Made by a program: the position numbers and the translations under genes. The notes under the pieces are model-generated. The model did not search any database. It was not told where the DNA came from and was given only the letters and a program-made list of their open reading frames with translations. Of a DNA stretch of 37,791 bases, positions 1,000 to 37,791 are shown in pieces (within the stretch, counting starts at the first letter, position 1; every line of letters begins with the position of its first letter). Location: sequence record SRR22947727_1528, one strand, 5' to 3'.

Positions 1000-1386
1000 A
1001 TGTTAAACCTTCTAATAGGACCTATTGCAGAATTAGCAGGTACTTGGTTAAAAGGTTCTGTAGAAACATCAAAGGCCAAGACGGACGCAAAGGTAGCCCA
1101 CGCAAAAGCTGAAGCTATTGTCATGCAGAAGAAGGCCACAGGTGAAATAGACTGGGACCTTAAAATGGCTGATGCTTCTGCGTCTTCTTGGAAAGATGAG
1201 TGGCTTACATTAATTTTCTCAGCACCATTGATACTTAGTTTTTGTGGTGACTGGGGCAGGACAATTGTAGCTGATGGCTTTGGTGCCTTGGCAACTATGC
1301 CTGACTGGTATCAGTACACACTAGGTGTCATTGTCGCTGCCAGCTTCGGTGTCCGTAGTGCTAGTAAGTTCTTCGGGAAACGCTAA
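1000..1386 (+). CDS. Holin (3-TM, GTA-holin-like)
   Basis: SWKDEW motif, hydrophobic segments, basic C-terminus; next to the lysozyme; AGGAG RBS. Confidence 0.75.
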   Translation: MLNLLIGPIAELAGTWLKGSVETSKAKTDAKVAHAKAEAIVMQKKATGEIDWDLKMADASASSWKDEWLTLIFSAPLILSFCGDWGRTIVADGFGALATMPDWYQYTLGVIVAASFGVRSASKFFGKR

Positions 1387-1779
1387 CTCAAAAAGTTGAA
1401 ATGATTTCTCAACACCCATTACTCTGATAGCGTTTACGATTTCCATTTCTAATGTTTCTTCATCTGTGCTGACTTCATCCGCATTGTTTCCTCGTACCCT
1501 TGCAAGAAGTTCAAGAGCCTTGAGAGCAGTGTTTCCATTACCCGCATTACGAGCAACCTCATACTGCTTTTCGATTTCTGAGATAACATCAACATCTGTT
1601 GAGATCTCATTTGTGAGTTCGTCAATCCGTTCTTTGATTCGTTCATCTTGTAATAACCTATGGCCTTGGTTATGGGCAGAGGTCTCACTATATCCTGCAG
1701 TTGCTGCCGCCTTTGTAGCATTTCTGTGCAGGATATAGGCTTGACAAAACCGTTCTTGTTTATCATTAAGCAGCGACAT
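1321..1779 (-). CDS. terS: Terminase small subunit
   Basis: N-terminal LNDKQERFCQAY…NATKAAATAGYS…GHRLL helix-turn-helix typical of TerS; ALKALELLAR segment. Confidence 0.8.
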   Translation of the reverse strand: MSLLNDKQERFCQAYILHRNATKAAATAGYSETSAHNQGHRLLQDERIKERIDELTNEISTDVDVISEIEKQYEVARNAGNGNTALKALELLARVRGNNADEVSTDEETLEMEIVNAIRVMGVEKSFQLFELAFPEELTSTTDTEAGSDNDT

Positions 1780-4886: not shown

Positions 4887-6830
4887 TTATGCCGCATTCA
4901 AGTCAACTACTTCACAGACACCTGCGGTACAAGCCAACTCACGTCCACCTGATGTAGTGTCTTCCTTTTCAAAGTCACTCAGCTTAGACCAATTAACATT
5001 CTTTGGCATCTTAGCTGACCACTCTTTATATGCAACAGCATCAATGTCCTGATAAGGTGCTTGTGCATAAACATGATCATCAAAAGGAAGGAAACTAATA
5101 CCTGACACCTCATCGAAATGTTTATACACCCAAGCACCCACGGTCATCCATTCCGATTCCTTAACTGAAATTGTTACGCTAGGCTTATGTTCGCACCAAT
5201 GTCGTTGATAGGTAAGCCACAACTCTAGCTGTTCAATGGCAGTCATTGCAGTGCGAGTAATAGCACCTTGGGGTGACTTCATTGGGAAGCTAAACACTGT
5301 AGTGCTTTCTGGTTTATTTACATCAGGCTCCGCTGGGATACCTTCAGCAATCAAGAACTGTGTTAGTGGATCTTTGTTGTCACCACGAACAGTACGAATA
5401 TAATATTCATTGTGACGTGCATGAATGCCTGATGCAGCATCAGTAAGCTGAGACACAGTACCACTAGGCTTTACACAAGTAACAGCAGTTGACTGTGGAA
5501 TGTCCAACTTCTTTGCAATATCTTTATTAGTCACTACTGCTTCTTCACGCAGTAATTCTAGTACTGTTTCTAATGTACCACCAATCTGAGATGTTAGTTT
5601 ATTATCCATGATGCCTGTCAAAGACACACCAAGCAACCGTTCTTCTTCTGTATTCTTCTGCCAAATCTTACGCAGATATTTGAAGTTGGTTAGTGTAGCT
5701 TGGAATGTACCAAGAATGGTAGCAAGATTAACCTTTTCACGAAGTGTTTCAACTGTGTCGCTCTCTCGTACCACAACCTCTGACAGATTACAGAACTGAT
5801 ATGGACGTAAGATAATCTCACTACAAGGGTTGCAGCCAAAGTCATGATCAGTTTCACGTCTACCATTCTTAGCTGCTTGCTTGATAGCTGCTTGTCTATT
5901 AAAGATACCACGCTCACCAGAATGTGATTCGTAAAGTGACAACCACTCACGCATGAACGTACCCATCTCTGGCTTTTCTTTGTAAGCTACAGAGTTATTA
6001 GCCAATGCACGTTGACCTTCACGTTTAATTCCAGGCTCATCCCACCACTGCCCTGACTTGGCATGTCGCATCTGATCATCGTTGAGGTTAGACAGGCTGA
6101 TAAGGGCTGATCGGCGTACACCGCCTACCACTACAACCTCACCAATCTTGCACATGATATCATGACATTCAATAGCATATAGCTTACGTCCTGCTGCACC
6201 CTTAAATTTCTTAATACAAAACTCAAACAACTCAATCAACGGTTGAGGACCTGATGCCCTACCACCAAATGTCTTGAGCCTTGCACCTGCAGGACGCACT
6301 TCGCTGACATCGAACTTGGGAACCTGACCAGAGTACAACATAAAGATAAGTTCTTTCAATGACTTAGCCCAGCCTGGACGTGAATCACCTACCTTAATTA
6401 CTGTATCTGTGTCATGAAAATCTTCATTAACTGTTGGTAGTTTGTCAACGATATGTCTTTCAACAGAGAAGCCTACACCTGTACCACACATTAGAATGTA
6501 CATTGTTTCGTCAAAGGCACGAGGGCTGTCAACTGGTACGTAAGAACAATTGTAGCCACCTACATGGCAACGATCTAAGGCAGGACCTGCAGTCATTAAT
6601 GCTCTCATACTTGGCATAATGTTTTGGTTTAATACTGCTTCTTCTAGCTTGCTGCGTAAAGTTTTTGTTATATCATATGAATAATTTTTCTTTAGATGAT
6701 CTTGCATATAATCAAAGTAACGGCTTACTGTTTCAGTCCATGTCTCACGGCGTTGTTCATCTTCTTTCCAACGTGCATATCGTGACAACGCAATAAAATT
6801 TTGGTAGTCTGTAGGTAAAATATTATTCAT
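4887..6830 (-). CDS. nrdJ: Class II (adenosylcobalamin-dependent) ribonucleotide reductase
   Basis: YNCSY, GGVRRSA, NPCSEI, FCNLSEV, TCVKPSGTVSQL and C-terminal CTAGVC; no beta subunit gene nearby. Confidence 0.92.
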   Translation of the reverse strand: MNNILPTDYQNFIALSRYARWKEDEQRRETWTETVSRYFDYMQDHLKKNYSYDITKTLRSKLEEAVLNQNIMPSMRALMTAGPALDRCHVGGYNCSYVPVDSPRAFDETMYILMCGTGVGFSVERHIVDKLPTVNEDFHDTDTVIKVGDSRPGWAKSLKELIFMLYSGQVPKFDVSEVRPAGARLKTFGGRASGPQPLIELFEFCIKKFKGAAGRKLYAIECHDIMCKIGEVVVVGGVRRSALISLSNLNDDQMRHAKSGQWWDEPGIKREGQRALANNSVAYKEKPEMGTFMREWLSLYESHSGERGIFNRQAAIKQAAKNGRRETDHDFGCNPCSEIILRPYQFCNLSEVVVRESDTVETLREKVNLATILGTFQATLTNFKYLRKIWQKNTEEERLLGVSLTGIMDNKLTSQIGGTLETVLELLREEAVVTNKDIAKKLDIPQSTAVTCVKPSGTVSQLTDAASGIHARHNEYYIRTVRGDNKDPLTQFLIAEGIPAEPDVNKPESTTVFSFPMKSPQGAITRTAMTAIEQLELWLTYQRHWCEHKPSVTISVKESEWMTVGAWVYKHFDEVSGISFLPFDDHVYAQAPYQDIDAVAYKEWSAKMPKNVNWSKLSDFEKEDTTSGGRELACTAGVCEVVDLNAA

Positions 6831-19875: not shown

Positions 19876-20202
19876 TCACATTCTGTGATCTGTGACTAGT
19901 TTACCATTCCGGCAAACATCATCTTCATTCAATTCTTCTTTTGGATATTCCCAAAAACTCCACATGCCACCATTGGCATAGTTTAAATGCTCAACCAATT
20001 CTAGACTGTTAGCGCACCACACAGAATAGTCACCAAGATATTGAACAGTGCCATCGTTATAGATACGCAGGGGTTGCGTTTCAAATATTCCATCCATTAA
20101 ATTTGTTATGGATAAAAAGAATTGCCCTTCCTTTGACCAATACAAGGGGATTTTCACACATCCCTTATGATCTAGTGGGTTGTCATATGATTTTACTATC
20201 AT
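19876..20202 (-). CDS. Hypothetical early protein
   Basis: GAGGT RBS and ATGA overlap support a start at 20202; the ORF track extends it to 20220. Confidence 0.65.
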   Translation of the reverse strand: MIVKSYDNPLDHKGCVKIPLYWSKEGQFFLSITNLMDGIFETQPLRIYNDGTVQYLGDYSVWCANSLELVEHLNYANGGMWSFWEYPKEELNEDDVCRNGKLVTDHRM

Positions 20203-20402
20203 TCTTTCACCTCTTTCCATTCACCATTTTCATATTTGACAATTCGGGCAGTATATCCAAGGTCAAGAATATCTTTGCATTTTACACCAGCCCAGCCAAT
20301 CGTGACATATGTCTTGTCACCATAGCAATTGACCCATCCAGATTTCATTTTCAATTCAACTCTGAAGGTATCATAACCATCATTATAATTTATTGCAGAC
20401 AT
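20199..20402 (-). CDS. Hypothetical early protein
   Basis: 67 aa; GAGGT RBS. Confidence 0.65.
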   Translation of the reverse strand: MSAINYNDGYDTFRVELKMKSGWVNCYGDKTYVTIGWAGVKCKDILDLGYTARIVKYENGEWKEVKE

Positions 20403-20411
20403 TATATCACC

Positions 20412-21011
20412 TCATTTACCTAGTATGAAATCAACATGCATTTGCGAGACGTGTTCACCATCACGATATTTTGTAGGGTGTACCGTTGCCAGATAGTCGC
20501 ACCAGCTATCCCATAGGTGTTCACACCCGCCCAGCTTTTCGCATGTGTCGATATATAATTCTGCTTTTTTACGCATCAAAGCATATGTAGCATTAGCACC
20601 ATACTTGAACGTGCTGGCAGATAATCCGAACCGTTGCAGGTTATGACTATCTAAACAGCCTATTTCGCCAAGAGCCAATTGGATTACGAAACCTGCTTTT
20701 GCTAGGTGAAGATTAGGGCATGATGCCACATATAAAAGCAGATCGGGAAGATCAATTTTGCCAGCTTGATAGTCAATAAATTTTGCATGAATATCTTTTT
20801 TATTCCGCTGGATATATTTATAGGCTTTTGCCTTTACTGCATTGTTCAGATAACGGCTATCCAAACCATTTTGTTTAACGTCAATATTCATATTACCAAC
20901 CAAATACCAATGGGTGCGAATAGAATTAATGACGCAAATCATAGTATCAGCAACGGCTGCAGGGCTTGCTGCGCAGGCCTGGCCTATTTTTGTTTGATGA
21001 TTTTTGAACAT
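20412..21011 (-). CDS. HhH-GPD superfamily (Ogg/EndoIII-like) DNA glycosylase-like protein
   Basis: CPNLHLAKAGFVIQL…GCLDSHNLQR resembles the helix-hairpin-helix Lys plus the LDxH catalytic Asp. Confidence 0.6.
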   Translation of the reverse strand: MFKNHQTKIGQACAASPAAVADTMICVINSIRTHWYLVGNMNIDVKQNGLDSRYLNNAVKAKAYKYIQRNKKDIHAKFIDYQAGKIDLPDLLLYVASCPNLHLAKAGFVIQLALGEIGCLDSHNLQRFGLSASTFKYGANATYALMRKKAELYIDTCEKLGGCEHLWDSWCDYLATVHPTKYRDGEHVSQMHVDFILGK

Positions 21012-21030
21012 TTCAAATCCTTTTGTTTCA

Positions 21031-21346
21031 AGTTAATATAGGCTTGCAATGGATTATTTAAAACCCATTGCAGTCTAATCAATAACCCCTAACAACCTTG
21101 CGAGTAACTTTCAAAAGCCAATGGCGTTTTACGAATTGGCCTGATTTTTTATTACGTCCAACGTGGAAATATGCCCGATTAGTCGAAACATATCCGCCTT
21201 TTGTAAAAAATGCCAAGCGTCCATCACCAATTGGATAATGGTTATTGCGTGTATCTGTCAGAAAATTAAGCATAATAGACCTCATGTATATGAAAGGAAA
21301 CACTAGTCGCCTAGTGCCTTGCAAACATTGCAAGCCTATATTAACT
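21031..21346. repeat. Perfect 21-bp inverted repeat flanking one small ORF
   Basis: AGTTAATATAGGCTTGCAATG (21031-21051) and CATTGCAAGCCTATATTAACT (21326-21346). Confidence 0.9.
21079..21273 (-). CDS. Small basic early protein (start probably MLNFLTDTR)
   Basis: GAGGT RBS before 21273; the ORF track extension to 21381 crosses hairpins. Confidence 0.6.
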   Translation of the reverse strand: MLNFLTDTRNNHYPIGDGRLAFFTKGGYVSTNRAYFHVGRNKKSGQFVKRHWLLKVTRKVVRGY

Positions 21347-21402
21347 CTCAACATTCGGGCGGGTCTTTTGCAGACACACAAGCCCTATATATGGACTAGG
21401 TA

Positions 21403-21603
21403 CTACCTAGCGTGCGCTTTTTTCACTCTTAGCCTTTCCGCAATTGTTGTCATTGGCTCATTGGGCTTTGCCAAGTTTTGGCATACATAGCCCCTATGTG
21501 ATAGGCTTTCAAATTGCCCCATTGGACTAGGTATGTTATGAGATAGGCTTTGCCTTACTCTTAAAGCTTTCCGTCTGTTTGGGTTTAATCTTCGCCTTGC
21601 CAT
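21403..21603 (-). CDS. First early ORF, Arg-rich protein
   Basis: MARRRLNPNRRKALRVRQ; lies directly downstream of a candidate promoter. Confidence 0.55.
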   Translation of the reverse strand: MARRRLNPNRRKALRVRQSLSHNIPSPMGQFESLSHRGYVCQNLAKPNEPMTTIAERLRVKKAHAR

Positions 21604-21640
21604 TGTCTTAATCGCTTTTCTGTTTCGTTCTTGTGATTAT

Positions 21641-21669
21641 GTTATGACCGAAAAAAAAAGCAGCGTAAA
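21641..21669 (-). promoter_or_regulatory. Candidate early promoter
   Basis: TTTACG-N17-CATAAC. Confidence 0.45.
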
Positions 21670-21679
21670 GCATAAAAAA

Positions 21680-21692
21680 TAAGTCATTGATT
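21680..21692 (-). promoter_or_regulatory. IHF consensus site
   Basis: AATCAATGACTTA matches WATCAANNNNTTR, with an upstream A-rich tract. Confidence 0.6.
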
Positions 21693-21733
21693 TTATTGGA
21701 TTTTATTTTGGGTGATTTTTGGAAAACTGGAAT

Positions 21734-21770
21734 GTTCCTGTTTCGTTCCTAGTTCGTTCCTGTTTCGTTC
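21734..21770 (+). promoter_or_regulatory. Tandem alphaproteobacterial LexA (SOS) boxes
   Basis: GTTC at 21734, 21745, 21756 and 21767, giving three overlapping GTTC-N7-GTTC boxes. Confidence 0.75.
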
Positions 21771-21824
21771 TGGTTAATCATGGGAATAATCATTTACACC
21801 TTATAATATATATAAAGGCGTTTT

Positions 21825-21890
21825 AATGTGCTAACACGCTAACACAAATCCCAGCTGGTCGTTTCAATGTGATAGCACGCTAAAACAAAT
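21825..21890. repeat. 25-bp direct repeat x2 with an imperfect internal palindrome
   Basis: AATGTGCTAACACGCTAACACAAAT and AATGTGATAGCACGCTAAAACAAAT (22/25 identical). Confidence 0.85.
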
Positions 21891-21956
21891 AGATAGACTG
21901 TGACATAAATGCTGCAGGTGTTGTAAAAATGTCACACTATACAGATCTTTCGTATG

Positions 21957-22050
21957 ATCAAACCTTGTTAGACTAATCAAACCTTGTTAGGCTTGGCTGT
22001 AAATGTTAGGCATGGCTTAATTTGTTAGGCAGGGGGTGGCTAGTTAGTCT
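21957..22050. repeat. Degenerate 19-bp tandem repeat x5 with a GTTAG core
   Basis: GTTAG at 21967, 21986, 22005, 22024 and 22043. Confidence 0.85.
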
Positions 22051-22103
22051 TGTCTTTATTATATAGGGCAGCCTAAGTGTCAAAAAAATGACGCTTCCAT
22101 AGT

Positions 22104-22118
22104 GAACAAATCGTGAAC
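22104..22118 (-). promoter_or_regulatory. LexA (SOS) box in the opposite orientation
   Basis: GAACAAATCGTGAAC on the + strand = GAAC-N7-GAAC. Confidence 0.7.
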
Positions 22119-22345
22119 AAAAAAAAAGTCAAGCAAAATCTTGTCAATAATTTGACGTATGATGTAGGGAAAAATAGATGAAATAAAAAAACACGGATAC
22201 CTATAGGGTATATTAGCGTTCCTAATAGACATGGAGGACAGCCGGGGGCTTAATAGTCTATATAGTTCTTTAGAACTCTTTAGAGTTTGTTACCATTATT
22301 TATTATTATTACTATCTTTTACTAACTCTTAATAACTATATAGGT

Positions 22346-22374
22346 ATTATAACATTCACTTGTATGTTTGTCAA
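22346..22374 (-). promoter_or_regulatory. Perfect sigma70 promoter firing leftward into the non-coding gap
   Basis: TTGACA-N17-TATAAT with a TGn extended -10. Confidence 0.8.
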
Positions 22375-22389
22375 TAGCTATGGTATACT
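22360..22389 (+). promoter_or_regulatory. Promoter for the packaging genes
   Basis: TTGTAT-N18-TATACT with a TGn extended -10. Confidence 0.6.
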
Positions 22390-22453
22390 TTTATTTGTCA
22401 ACCAGTACATTTTTTAAAAGGTGTGATAAAAATACAACACATAAGGATTAATT

Positions 22454-22654
22454 ATGTTTGAAGCGTTAATTTTAGTTTGTCTAGTCTCTACAGAATGTGT
22501 AGAATTGACAGACACTAGAGGTTTGCACAAAACAGAAATGTCTTGTAAGGCTAGAATAGCCGAGATGGTTAGTGATTTTGTTTCTGATGAAAGAACACCT
22601 CCGGTTATAGGAATAAAATATAAATGTCAAATTAAAAAAGGTACACCTATTTAA
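22454..22654 (+). CDS. Small Cys-containing hypothetical protein
   Basis: 66 aa; AAGGA RBS; TAATG coupling to terL. Confidence 0.7.
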   Translation: MFEALILVCLVSTECVELTDTRGLHKTEMSCKARIAEMVSDFVSDERTPPVIGIKYKCQIKKGTPI

Positions 22655-24213
22655 TGTTAGATAGTCATACTAATGAAGAACTCCCTGATATTCAGGGTGT
22701 GTCAGCCTACTTAACCCTGCGAGAGAAGATTAATAACTACAATAACTACAAAGCCAAGGATGATTTCCTAACCTTTGTCAAGATATTTGCACCCACAATT
22801 GTTTCAGAGTTTGAGATGGGTAGGCATATTGAGCTATTGTGTGAAAAGCTACAGGGGGTTGTTGACGGAACTACCAAACGACTAATGGTATTCCTACCAC
22901 CTCGCTCATCTAAGTCAGTTATCTGTAGTAAACTGTTTCCTGCCTGGTACATTGGTAACTTTGCACACCATGAAATTATGTCAGTGTCTCACTCTGACCA
23001 GCTTGCTAGTGATTTTGGTAGAACTGTCAGGGATATTGTCAATACTGAGAAGTTTCAAAAGATTTTTAGAGGTGTAGCACTACGTAGTGACGTTAAGGCA
23101 GCGGGTAAATGGAAAACAAACCAGAATGGTTCCTATTATGCAGCAGGTGTACGTAGCCAGGTAGCAGGCCGTGGCGCACACGTAGCCCTATTGGATGACG
23201 TAATGTCTGAAGAGGATTCATTTAGCGAGGCAGGCCGTAGATATATCAAGGAATGGTATCCTGCAGGCTTACGTACACGTATCATGCCTAACGGTTCTAT
23301 TATTATTGTCAATACTAGGTATCACTATGACGATCTCTGTGGTTGGCTATTGAAACAAGAGAGTAAGGTAGAAGAAACAACAAACAAATGGGAAGTCATT
23401 AGTATCCCTGCATGGCTTGATGAGGAAGCTGCAGAGCTTCTGGGGCTACCAGAGGGTACTTCGTACTTCCCTGAGTGGAAACCTGACGAAGTTCTTAGGG
23501 TTGACGAACAGGAAATCAGAGCAACCAACGGTGCAAGGTACTGGAACTCTTTGTACATGCAAGATCCTAGTCCAGATGACGGTGGTATTATCAAGAAGCG
23601 TTGGATTGAATGGTGGGAAGATGACGAGCCACCTAACTGTGACTTTATTATCCAGACATATGACACGGCCTTTAGTACCCGCAGGACTGCCGACTACAGC
23701 GTTATCCAGACTTGGGGTATCTTTAGTCAGTTTGAGAAGGACGAGTACGGTGGTGAGCAAATTACGTCCAATCTAATTCTCCTGGGTAACATCCGGGGGA
23801 GGTTTGAATATCCTGAACTGCGTAGGATTGCCCAAGAATTATATCAGGAGTATAGACCCGATGTTTGTATTATTGAAAAGAAAGCTTCAGGACAATCCCT
23901 TATACAGGATATGAGAAGGGCAGGTCTACCTGTACTGGATTATCTACCTGACCGTGACAAGGTTGCAAGGGTATACGCTTCAACGCCTATGATGGAATCA
24001 GGGCGTGTGTGGCTACCAAAGGACAGACAATTTGCAGACGATTTGTTTGAAGAGTGTATGTCATTCCCTAATGGCGCACACGATGACCAAGTTGACTGTA
24101 TGACTATGGCTATTCATTACATGAAGGACAGTTGGAACCTTATCCACCCTGAAGATCCTAATTGGGAAGACGAGCCAAGAACAAGAAAGAGGGTTGCATA
24201 CTGGAGAACTTGA
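22654..24213 (+). CDS. terL: Terminase large subunit
   Basis: LPPRSSKS (Walker A-like), LLDD (Walker B), NTRYHYDDL, YDTAF…DYS, IEKKASG and HDDQVD motifs. Confidence 0.95.
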   Translation: MLDSHTNEELPDIQGVSAYLTLREKINNYNNYKAKDDFLTFVKIFAPTIVSEFEMGRHIELLCEKLQGVVDGTTKRLMVFLPPRSSKSVICSKLFPAWYIGNFAHHEIMSVSHSDQLASDFGRTVRDIVNTEKFQKIFRGVALRSDVKAAGKWKTNQNGSYYAAGVRSQVAGRGAHVALLDDVMSEEDSFSEAGRRYIKEWYPAGLRTRIMPNGSIIIVNTRYHYDDLCGWLLKQESKVEETTNKWEVISIPAWLDEEAAELLGLPEGTSYFPEWKPDEVLRVDEQEIRATNGARYWNSLYMQDPSPDDGGIIKKRWIEWWEDDEPPNCDFIIQTYDTAFSTRRTADYSVIQTWGIFSQFEKDEYGGEQITSNLILLGNIRGRFEYPELRRIAQELYQEYRPDVCIIEKKASGQSLIQDMRRAGLPVLDYLPDRDKVARVYASTPMMESGRVWLPKDRQFADDLFEECMSFPNGAHDDQVDCMTMAIHYMKDSWNLIHPEDPNWEDEPRTRKRVAYWRT

Positions 24214-35955: not shown

Positions 35956-36233
35956 TGCCTTCTAGAAAGAATGTTTATGGTTTATGTGATGTATGTGGAT
36001 TTAGATATAAATTAAATCAGCTAAAGAAAAACAGCTATGGGTTGATGGTTTGTAATAATGATTTTGATGCTGGGTATGATTTAAAAAACCATCCTCAGAA
36101 TAAATCAGCACGAATAGATGAAAGATATATGATCAAGGATATTCGTCCTGACCCTAATATAGACCGTAATGGTACTTGGGTTGCACAAACCACAGCATTT
36201 AATTCAACACTTCAATTTTGGAACTTGATATAA
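35955..36233 (+). CDS. Zn-ribbon-like small protein
   Basis: CDVCGFRY…VCNND…HPQ…RPD. Confidence 0.7.
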   Translation: MPSRKNVYGLCDVCGFRYKLNQLKKNSYGLMVCNNDFDAGYDLKNHPQNKSARIDERYMIKDIRPDPNIDRNGTWVAQTTAFNSTLQFWNLI

Positions 36234-37791
36234 TGGCAGATTTAACAGGTAAATTAATAGCAAACAGTTATAGAAATCTTTTACAAGCACCAGGGCCTAA
36301 TGATGACGGTCTTGCAAGTGGACAATCTATTACTATTCAAGATGGTTCTGGTAATGGTTCAGGGCTTGCTTTATCTCAGGCAGGTGTTGCACTAACTGGT
36401 ACTATTAACATTCAAGGTAGCCAGTTTACAGGTACAGGCTCACAACTAAATACTGCCGTTGCAAATGCAGGTACTTTTGTTGTGGGTATGGTTGCTCAGA
36501 ATGGCGTACAATCATTTGGTCGTACTCTTACAGCTTCAACTGGTGTAAGTATTTCTAACGCAACAGGAACAACTGGTAATCCTACATTTTCATTAGCTGA
36601 TAGCGGTGTAACATCTGCAACATATGGACCAACTACTATGTTGAATATTGATTCAACTGGTCGTGTTATTTCAACTGAAACTACTGCAGTTATATCTGCA
36701 ACAACTTTTGAAGGTTCTAATGTTAATGCACAATATGGTAACTTTACTACTGATGTATCTATAGGTGGTCAACTAACAGTTACTGGTTCTTTCCAACCAA
36801 CAAATATTTCTACAAGTATTGTAAGCGCAACTAACATTGCAGCTAGTGTAGCCACTCTTAGTAGCCTTACTGTAAGTGGCAATGTAACAGCCACTGCTTA
36901 TTATGGTGATGGTTCTAATCTTACAGGTATTGTTGCGGCATCTGCAACTAATGCAAGCTATGCAGCATCTGCAGGTGAAGCAGCCGTAGCTGTCAGCGCA
37001 CATCATGCATCTAGCGCAACTTTTGCTACAAGCGCAGACACTGCTAACTTTGCTACCACAGCAACAAATGCAAGCTTTGCTATTTCAGCTACTAATGCTA
37101 CTAATGCAGTATCTGCAGTATTTGCTTCATCAGCTACCAACGCAACAACTGCGATTACTGTAAACTATGGTGGTGTAGTACAGACAAGTACAGCTAATAT
37201 TGGTGACGTATCTGCTTCAAGTCTTTTTGTAAGTGGTAATGTATCTGCAGACGGAACACTTACTGTTGGCGGTCAGGTGTCTATTGGTGGTGGTATTAAA
37301 GTTGTAGGAGATGTGTCTGCAGGTAATGTTCATGCAGGTGGTACTATTTATGGAGATGGTTCAGGTTTATTTAATCTTCCTTCGGGACAAGGTGGTACTG
37401 TAAAATCTGTAAAAGCAGGAACAGGTATTCATACAACTCTTAATGGTACAACTACAACTAATCCTATTACTACGAGTGGTACAATGGCTCTTAATGCTAA
37501 CCAATCTTTTGGTACAGTAAGTGCTACATCTTTTGTGCTTGCTGGTTTAGGTGCGCTTATTACTGAAACAAGTGCAACAGCCTTAGTAGCTGCCTTGTCA
37601 ACAACAATGGCAACCAGTATTAATAACAGTAATACTAATATTACAACTAATACTAATGCCATTACATCTATTAATTCTATAATAGGCGATGGTACTGGCT
37701 TTGCTACTGATGCTGAACTAGCTGCTTTATCTGCAACAATGGCAACAAGTATTAATAATAGTAATACAAACATTACTACAAACATAAATGC
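36233..37791 (+). CDS. Tail fibre-like protein, truncated by the window end (not in the ORF track)
   Basis: TAATG coupling; reads MADLTGKLIANSYRNLLQ…; GDGSNLTGI motif, A-x-x repeats, Ser/Thr/Ala/Asn-rich; same frame holds at the repeats near the window end. Confidence 0.85.
   Translation, partial: MADLTGKLIANSYRNLLQAPGPNDDGLASGQSITIQDGSGNGSGLALSQAGVALTGTINIQGSQFTGTGSQLNTAVANAGTFVVGMVAQNGVQSFGRTLTASTGVSISNATGTTGNPTFSLADSGVTSATYGPTTMLNIDSTGRVISTETTAVISATTFEGSNVNAQYGNFTTDVSIGGQLTVTGSFQPTNISTSIVSATNIAASVATLSSLTVSGNVTATAYYGDGSNLTGIVAASATNASYAASAGEAAVAVSAHHASSATFATSADTANFATTATNASFAISATNATNAVSAVFASSATNATTAITVNYGGVVQTSTANIGDVSASSLFVSGNVSADGTLTVGGQVSIGGGIKVVGDVSAGNVHAGGTIYGDGSGLFNLPSGQGGTVKSVKAGTGIHTTLNGTTTTNPITTSGTMALNANQSFGTVSATSFVLAGLGALITETSATALVAALSTTMATSINNSNTNITTNTNAITSINSIIGDGTGFATDAELAALSATMATSINNSNTNITTNIN
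37589..37791 (+). repeat. 44-aa (132-nt) period repeat inside the tail fibre gene
   Basis: AALSTTMATSINNSNTNITTNTNA at 37589 and AALSATMATSINNSNTNITTNIN at 37721. Confidence 0.85.

Follow-up and report, generated by a model that had tools for sequence, protein, structure and literature searches.

The DNA of sequence record SRR22947727_1528 (37,791 nucleotides, hereafter referred to as the window) represents approximately 38 kb of the roughly 57 kb genome of an abundant uncultured marine phage, and it harbors a gap between positions 21,604 and 22,453, at which a leftward block of early and replication genes and a rightward block of packaging and structural genes diverge. This gap is probably the central bidirectional control region between the two blocks, and a second function as replication origin is conceivable, albeit more tentatively. 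The gap motifs are confined almost wholly to the gap, and three families of them, here called classes A, B and C, are also found in relatives with a gap that can no longer be aligned, since only the closest relatives remain alignable at this locus. The original prediction for this DNA had pictured the gap as a collection of host-regulator-like operators whose motif classes should be kept in relatives while the flanks diverge; the persistence of three classes where the gap DNA itself is no longer alignable supports the view that the gap motifs behave as functional, putatively protein-binding sites. In addition, the gap contains 97 repeated 8-mers compared to 45 ± 13 in 500 first-order resamples (maximum 96). 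The gap is non-coding, as had been predicted, and no credible open reading frame (ORF) was found within it; ORFs of 50 amino acids in the window and of 89 and 69 amino acids in the relative L003 were rejected as spurious, since they are of low complexity and their tails shift with a rearrangement described below.

The gap anatomy suggests the following mode of control. The late promoter, which carries an extended -10 element, overlaps back to back with a perfect-consensus leftward promoter, so that both would compete for polymerase, and the leftward promoter would give rise to a transcript of about 150 nt ending at a hairpin and a T-run. A 20-bp class C operator with two half-sites separates the late promoter from the first late gene, and two further class C copies around 500 bp upstream would suit looping or cooperative repression. 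The middle and left parts of the gap contain class B palindromic operators and, near the first early gene, an 11-bp-phased GTTC array, and 19-bp direct repeats beside (TA)-rich DNA with 31% G+C form a candidate replication origin. The promoters are predicted to fire, and candidate binders of the sites are small proteins of the phage, host factors such as LexA, or both.

Comparisons are based on 468 relatives of this phage group, which were found in IMG/VR via the large terminase TerL and of which 80 loci were kept; most counts refer to the 42 to 43 loci with at least about 1.2 kb of upstream sequence. The closest complete relative, G002 (57,282 bp), shares 89-97% identity with most of the window.

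Promoters and conserved site families of the gap

A perfect sigma-70 consensus promoter (TTGACA-17-TATAAT with an upstream TG, 12/12) is located on the minus strand at 22346-22374 and would direct transcription to the left; it fits the sigma-70 form TTGACA-17±1-TATAAT. It is overlapped by the rightward promoter of the late operon, TTGTAT-18-TGgTATACT (22360-22389, plus strand). The hexamers of both overlapping promoters are conserved in six relatives (L003, L008 and L012-L015), of which L014 and L015 possess TTGCAT-17-TGtTATAAT as rightward promoter, and an extended -10 element is present 26-70 nt upstream of the first late ORF in 18 of the 23 relatives for which a first small ORF was called. 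The earlier statement that most motifs lie clear of any visible promoter thus had to be given up, as the gap contains a conserved pair of overlapping promoters, one of them of perfect consensus, and an operator-like site that follows a promoter and precedes a ribosome-binding site. Approximately 150 nt downstream of the leftward promoter, hairpins followed by a run of seven T residues (22185-22227, minus strand) form a terminator-like end of the predicted leftward transcript. This stretch includes the sequence ATACC-N5-GGTAT noted previously (22197-22211) and the palindrome TATTAG-CGTTC-CTAATA (22211-22227). A simple terminator scan did not flag the hairpin and T-run; all nine aligned relatives retain a T-run preceded by a GC-containing hairpin, the sequence of which differs. 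The body of the leftward transcript is not conserved among the aligned relatives.

Class C sites are 20 bp long and consist of NTGT[G/T][G/A]CA-N4 followed by the mirror image of the first arm. The duplicated 18-bp TGT...ACA dyad of the original prediction belongs to this class; its copy at 21918-21937 is intact, its copy at 21899-21918 has a degenerate right arm, and a third copy, GTGTGATAAAAATACAACAC (22421-22440), had been overlooked. This third copy follows the late promoter and precedes the ribosome-binding site of the first late gene, and many relatives likewise possess one class C copy at a fixed distance of 232-264 nt before TerL, immediately ahead of the first late ORF. Class C was found in 33 of 43 loci including the window, with 89 sites in 64.5 kb of gaps compared to 5 in 125 kb of coding control sequence. 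Of 45 distinct sites, a single one is fully self-complementary; hence, the half-site sequence rather than the pairing is conserved, which points to a protein-binding site rather than an RNA hairpin. Neither a sigma-54 promoter, for which the GG-to-GC spacing is about 3 nt too short as read from printed sites, nor a CRP site, which has a different spacing, accounts for class C. To our knowledge, no known host motif matches class B or class C.

Class B comprises two 16-bp palindromes of the type TGTCAA-N4-TTGACG, which flank a segment of 48 nt (22078-22157). Both TGTCA-N6-TGACG dyads had been reported, and the copies at 22078 and 22142 are the sole two TGTCA-N6-TGAC dyads in 37.8 kb, a number that is statistically weak on its own since 12 of 100 shuffled sequences also reach two. 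The segment between them contains an inverted GTTC-N7-GTTC (22104-22118), which is the GAAC-N7-GAAC box described earlier as it reads on the minus strand, and a tract of nine A residues. At least two copies of GTCAA-N4-TTGAC are present in 16 of 42 relatives, 15 of which have a TerL identity of at least 82%, the exception being L062 (74%). In five records, three of which are near-complete, nearly all class B copies are located in or beside the gap. The idea that class B arms serve as -35 elements was rejected: a -10-like hexamer follows at the right distance in 9 of 90 arms and in 181 of 1720 random positions.

The class A array consists of four GTTC units phased by 11 bp, that is, three overlapping GTTC-N7-GTTC matches (21734-21770, plus strand), and the four phased half-sites seen initially are therefore well founded. 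The window contains five GTTC-N7-GTTC matches compared to 1.05 expected, a number reached by none of 100 shuffles, and four of the five are found in the gap, namely the three overlapping ones and the inverted one at 22104-22118. Class A is present in 20 of 43 gaps, 14 of which possess at least two copies, including clades with a TerL identity of 74-76%. In whole records, the gap region holds all five matches of G010 and five of the six of G002, while G009 has none and G008 and G011 have scattered matches only. The conserved unit is TTTGTTCAC plus two variable bases, which is longer than a LexA box, and the 15-mer GTTCACGATTTGTTC is identical between the window and G010. The array is located 131 nt before the first early gene and 35-100 nt downstream of a weak promoter-like site on the minus strand, TTAGCA-18-TATATT (9/12), which is part of a (TA)-rich TTATAATATATATAAAGG element at 21800-21834.

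A further block, D/D2, consists of CCCCCACC with a run of A residues and, after about 12 nt, TATATATAATATACCCCTGNCATATA; it is single-copy and oriented and was found in 33 of 42 relatives from all clades (for example, L003 5345-5400; L038 approximately 5470-5530). Its spacing to the first late gene is fixed, and CCGGGGGCT comes after it. The latter sequence, block E, is located at 22242-22250 on the plus strand of the window and is likewise conserved across clades, as are the element order including blocks D, D2 and E and the distance to the late gene. Block D/D2 may serve as an unusual promoter, as an unwinding element of an origin or as a packaging signal. A small coding region was rejected for block D, since the spacer between D and D2 varies by non-multiples of three and, by our own reading of the printed sequence, the frame in L038 stops early.

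The possible origin function is suggested by five direct repeats of 19 bp centred on TGTTAG (21957-22050, plus strand), an iteron-like arrangement in line with iteron-type origins, where three or more phased direct repeats of 17-22 bp adjoin an AT-rich unwinding region. The fivefold GTTAG repeat was thus recognized correctly: TGTTAG-N13-TGTTAG occurs four times compared to 0.34 expected, and none of 100 shuffles contains as many; these repeats are private to the closest relatives. The G+C content falls to 0.31 in 22001-22500, and at the gap the cumulative GC skew comes close to its minimum. The duplicated TGTG-TAGC palindrome of the original prediction is indeed duplicated; however, it is really a 31-nt direct repeat with two copies (21819-21849 and 21860-21890, plus strand) that are 87% alike and each hold GCTAACAC-type units, seen as TGTTAG when the minus strand is read. 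The TATAATATATA motif is found in the gap only, in the window as in G002. The predicted match to the IHF consensus (WATCAANNNNTTR) is present on the minus strand at 21680-21692, but it does not exceed the chance level: the window contains three matches, one of them in the gap, compared to 3.47 expected, and 68 of 100 shuffles reach three. In L014, about five CTTGTAACAAG palindromes replace the sequence of the window in the AT-rich stretch after the leftward promoter (5570-5700); they are a further clade-specific family of operator-like sites.

Alternative explanations and points against a control region

In the alphaproteobacterial literature, GTTC-N7-GTTC is given as the LexA motif (PMC8565304; PMC3323433; PMC9578287, Table 1), and the class A sites have this form with exact spacing and in both orientations. 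It is possible, though unlikely, that the GTTC arrays are true LexA sites of an alphaproteobacterial host, so that early transcription or replication would answer host DNA damage. This explanation would be in line with the strong enrichment of the motif in the gap and its confinement to the gap region in whole records, with the presence of class A in clades sharing few early genes, and with the hosts of the nearest named phages, Pelagibacter and Roseobacter (39% identity for TerL, 47% for the DNA polymerase). However, class A is absent from 23 of 43 relatives, and five named phages of Pelagibacter and Roseobacter possess no GTTC arrays but only scattered matches at control level. In addition, the conserved unit exceeds the LexA box, and runs of up to four units occur twice in L062, giving nine overlapping matches; such long runs of longer units look more like iterons or response-regulator-type repeats. 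Neither of the two lexA loci (about 3.2 kb each) in the sole genome bin with a relative contains GTTC-N7-GTTC; this bin (5.9 Mb, high G+C) was dropped as a host lead, and the contig of 3.4 kb on which the relative resides is probably mis-binned. That arrays with up to nine overlapping LexA-type boxes per genome are genuine LexA-binding arrays, through which these phages read the SOS state of the host or drain LexA, is quite improbable; if it were true, LexA drained by the multiplying phage DNA would switch on host repair and nucleotide-supply genes, and the arrays together with a second and a third operator family for other factors would constitute a multi-input sensor made largely of host-factor sites. 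In the original prediction, the gap was a possible decoy array that recruits or titrates host DNA-binding proteins; in this reading, the sites would mainly draw host transcription factors off host promoters as the phage DNA multiplies. There are many sites per genome, some of which lack an adjacent promoter, such as the class B arms without a -10 element and the overlapping class A matches of L062, and no phage regulator was recognized in the window (Pfam and PHROGs) or among 13 ORFs of G002 beyond it (PHROGs). On the other hand, the sites are kept in a conserved order and at fixed distances from the late gene, and they overlap or flank promoters as expected of cis-acting regulators; class C in particular has a fixed place after the late promoter and ahead of the first late gene rather than being unlinked to the phage's own promoters and genes. 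The description of the sites as host-regulator-like is appropriate for class A in view of its LexA form but not for the IHF match, and only one class has a known host counterpart. Moreover, around 30 small early proteins without assigned function could bind the sites, and the literature found, judged by titles and the beginnings of abstracts, does not describe a phage decoy array. A decoy role is not needed to explain the anatomy of the gap and is very improbable.

The gap had also been proposed to hold the joined genome termini, and a pac or cos site might be considered for the same position. The TerL operon begins immediately after the gap; among 80 IMG/VR contigs, 34 have an end 100-1300 nt upstream of TerL compared to 7 in the matching downstream bin, and of 16 long contigs with an end within 6 kb upstream, 8 stop inside the gap. 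The highly conserved, single-copy and oriented block D/D2 would also suit such a site. The contig ends, however, do not fall on one homologous point but scatter between 128 and 1296 nt upstream of TerL, a range of more than 1 kb, often at repeat copies, which fits assembly breaks at repeats and strain variants. No small terminase gene adjoins the gap either; it is found 20 kb away on the opposite strand (1321-1779, minus strand) and is assigned by PF03592 and by matches to the PDB entries 3zqp, 2cmp and 4zc3. We take these structures to be small terminases of the SF6/SPP1 type, i.e., of phages that package by the headful mechanism, and by analogy packaging may begin near terS. The two ends of G002 share about 149 nt within the DNA polymerase gene, indicating that this genome assembles as a circle; two IMG/VR records with direct terminal repeats end 5-6 kb and approximately 21 kb from TerL, so that the three complete assemblies of circular type open at three different sites outside the gap. 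The gap is also spanned by Logan contigs from two studies. A terminus in the gap is therefore very unlikely.

Several observations weigh against a bidirectional control region. Classes A and B are patchy, each being absent from about half of the relatives, and none of the early-protein clusters tracks class A or class B cleanly in the 22 loci (out of 43) that extend 4 kb or more upstream. A conserved early protein of 199 amino acids encoded close to the gap (20412-21011, minus strand) is an unlikely operator-binding protein: its confidently predicted structure (pLDDT 92) has its best fold matches among HhH-GPD glycosylases of the Ogg type (Ogg2) and endonuclease III (E approximately 0.04, TM approximately 0.5), suggesting a DNA-glycosylase-like protein, and no sequence match was found in PDB or Pfam. 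The leftward transcript shows neither a significant fold (z = -0.69) nor a consensus structure among nine aligned relatives, and these results, together with the lack of matches in Rfam, do not support a structured small RNA. The 20 runs listed for the stretch are all DNA-type Logan contigs, 19 of which hold part of it. With regard to the origin, the turn in GC skew coincides with the switch in transcription direction and is thus no proof of an origin on its own. Finally, the window lacks D/D2, the most conserved block of the region, so its copy of the region may be atypical. As candidate binders of the sites in the control region, several small basic early proteins can be named; for the 66-amino-acid protein included in the search for a binder, the ESM Atlas contained nothing. 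TerL had no sequence match in PDB.

Rearranged copy of the gap and gene content of the phage

Compared to eight relatives, the window has the segment 22077-22158 in inverted orientation and is missing about 220 nt (L003 counterpart 5202-5506), which comprise block D/D2, one class C copy and three dyads. Recombination between the palindromic dyads could account for this change. The inverted, long-type joint is present in each of the four Logan runs, which come from four studies, and four metagenome contigs also contain the long-type junction; window-type junctions had no matches in IMG/VR or the metagenome collection. Since the short form occurs in no other record or run, the window form has arisen either through a rearrangement private to it or because the assembly collapsed at the dyads. 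As the window copy is rearranged and shortened, the long form of the relatives should be used for work on the motifs.

The left border of the gap is formed by the first leftward gene (21403-21603, minus strand), which encodes an early protein of 66 amino acids with a pI of 11.9 and an arginine-rich N-terminus; the gene is considered to be real because L014 and L015 retain the protein although their DNA does not align here. The N-terminal stretch of this protein, MARRRLNPNRRKALRVRQ, is reminiscent of the RNA-binding motif of the lambda N-type antiterminators, and the terminator-like signal lies between the strong leftward promoter and its gene. The leftward block further encodes small ORFs, a DNA methyltransferase, MazG, a T7 gp4-like primase/helicase, DNA polymerase A, a Cas4-like exonuclease, endonuclease I, ribonucleotide reductase and the small terminase; the latter is encoded by the last gene of the block, beside the point at which both gene blocks converge. 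To the right of the gap, an ORF of 66 amino acids and the large terminase gene (together 22454-24213, plus strand) are followed by genes for the portal, a GroES-like protein and the capsid. The 16.5 kb of G002 beyond the window contain structural and tail genes only.

Pfam and PHROGs scans of the window and G002 yielded no gene for an RNA polymerase, a CI/Cro-like protein or an integrase; for the part of G002 beyond the window, they covered 13 ORFs (PHROGs; no RNA polymerase, integrase or repressor). The absence of a recognizable repressor, stated at the outset for the window, holds for 37 window proteins compared with Pfam and 20 compared with PHROGs. The phage probably depends on the host RNA polymerase, and it looks virulent. 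At the DNA level, no named phage matched the window; the nearest named relatives by protein are HTVC023P (TerL) and HTVC103P (DNA polymerase). The runs holding the stretch are metagenomes from marine, seawater, sponge, salt-marsh, aquatic and wastewater sources.

Some features outside the gap are worth mentioning. Two adjacent small early genes (19876-20220 and 20199-20402, minus strand) are paralogs of each other, and a single ORF of L006 (1403-1678) aligns with both, its N-terminal part resembling one and its C-terminal tail the other. A small basic ORF (21079-21285) is surrounded by a 28-nt inverted repeat (21024-21051 and 21326-21353, 89% complementary); in one environmental contig, the 253 nt between the arms are swapped for 266 other letters, which makes this an exchangeable early-gene cassette. 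In relatives such as L030 and L020, palindromic hairpin repeats are located between early genes. The highest density of repeated 8-mers in the window (36300-37700, plus strand) lies inside an ORF that starts at 36218 and is open at its 3' end, and it probably reflects a repeat-rich structural or tail protein.

Comparison with known phage control regions

The immunity and control regions of lambdoid phages contain the oR and oL operators with the back-to-back promoters PR and PRM. Similar to these, the gap is a gene-free region between divergent operons with several two-fold symmetric sites of 14-20 bp, overlapping divergent promoters and an operator between a promoter and the first gene. In contrast to the lambdoid regions, the scans of the window and G002 found neither a CI/Cro-like nor an integrase gene; the gap measures 0.85-1.1 kb and contains at least four unrelated motif families instead of one, and it belongs to a phage of apparently virulent lifestyle. 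The alphaproteobacterial LexA operator differs in that the runs in the gaps of the phage group consist of three to nine overlapping boxes with a longer conserved unit.

With regard to replication, the origin of lambda possesses four 19-bp repeats and AT-rich DNA and is bound by the O protein, and the ori and crr sequences of P4 contain TGTTCACC iterons bound by the alpha primase-helicase. The five 19-bp direct repeats of the gap likewise adjoin (TA)-rich DNA with 31% G+C, the 11-bp-phased TTTGTTCAC units of the relatives contain the P4-like core TGTTCAC, and a T7-like replisome is encoded nearby. However, no initiator protein was recognized among the window proteins using Pfam and PHROGs, the primase-helicase is similar to T7 gp4 rather than to P4 alpha, and the 19-bp repeats are found in the closest relatives only. 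The early region of T7 contains the strong host promoters A1-A3, and its primary origin consists of promoters and AT-rich DNA. The phage shares with T7 the gp4-like primase-helicase, DNA polymerase A and endonuclease I as well as consensus host-type promoters beside AT-rich DNA, whereas no phage RNA polymerase was found in the scans of the window and G002 and the gap contains many operator-like repeats. A position at a genome end, moreover, has no support for the gap.

Taken together, the gap provides a concrete map of a probable control region, comprising a pair of overlapping promoters, a predicted short transcript with its terminator, three site families kept in relatives and one near-universal block, for a phage group that is common and yet has no cultured member with a TerL identity above 39%.

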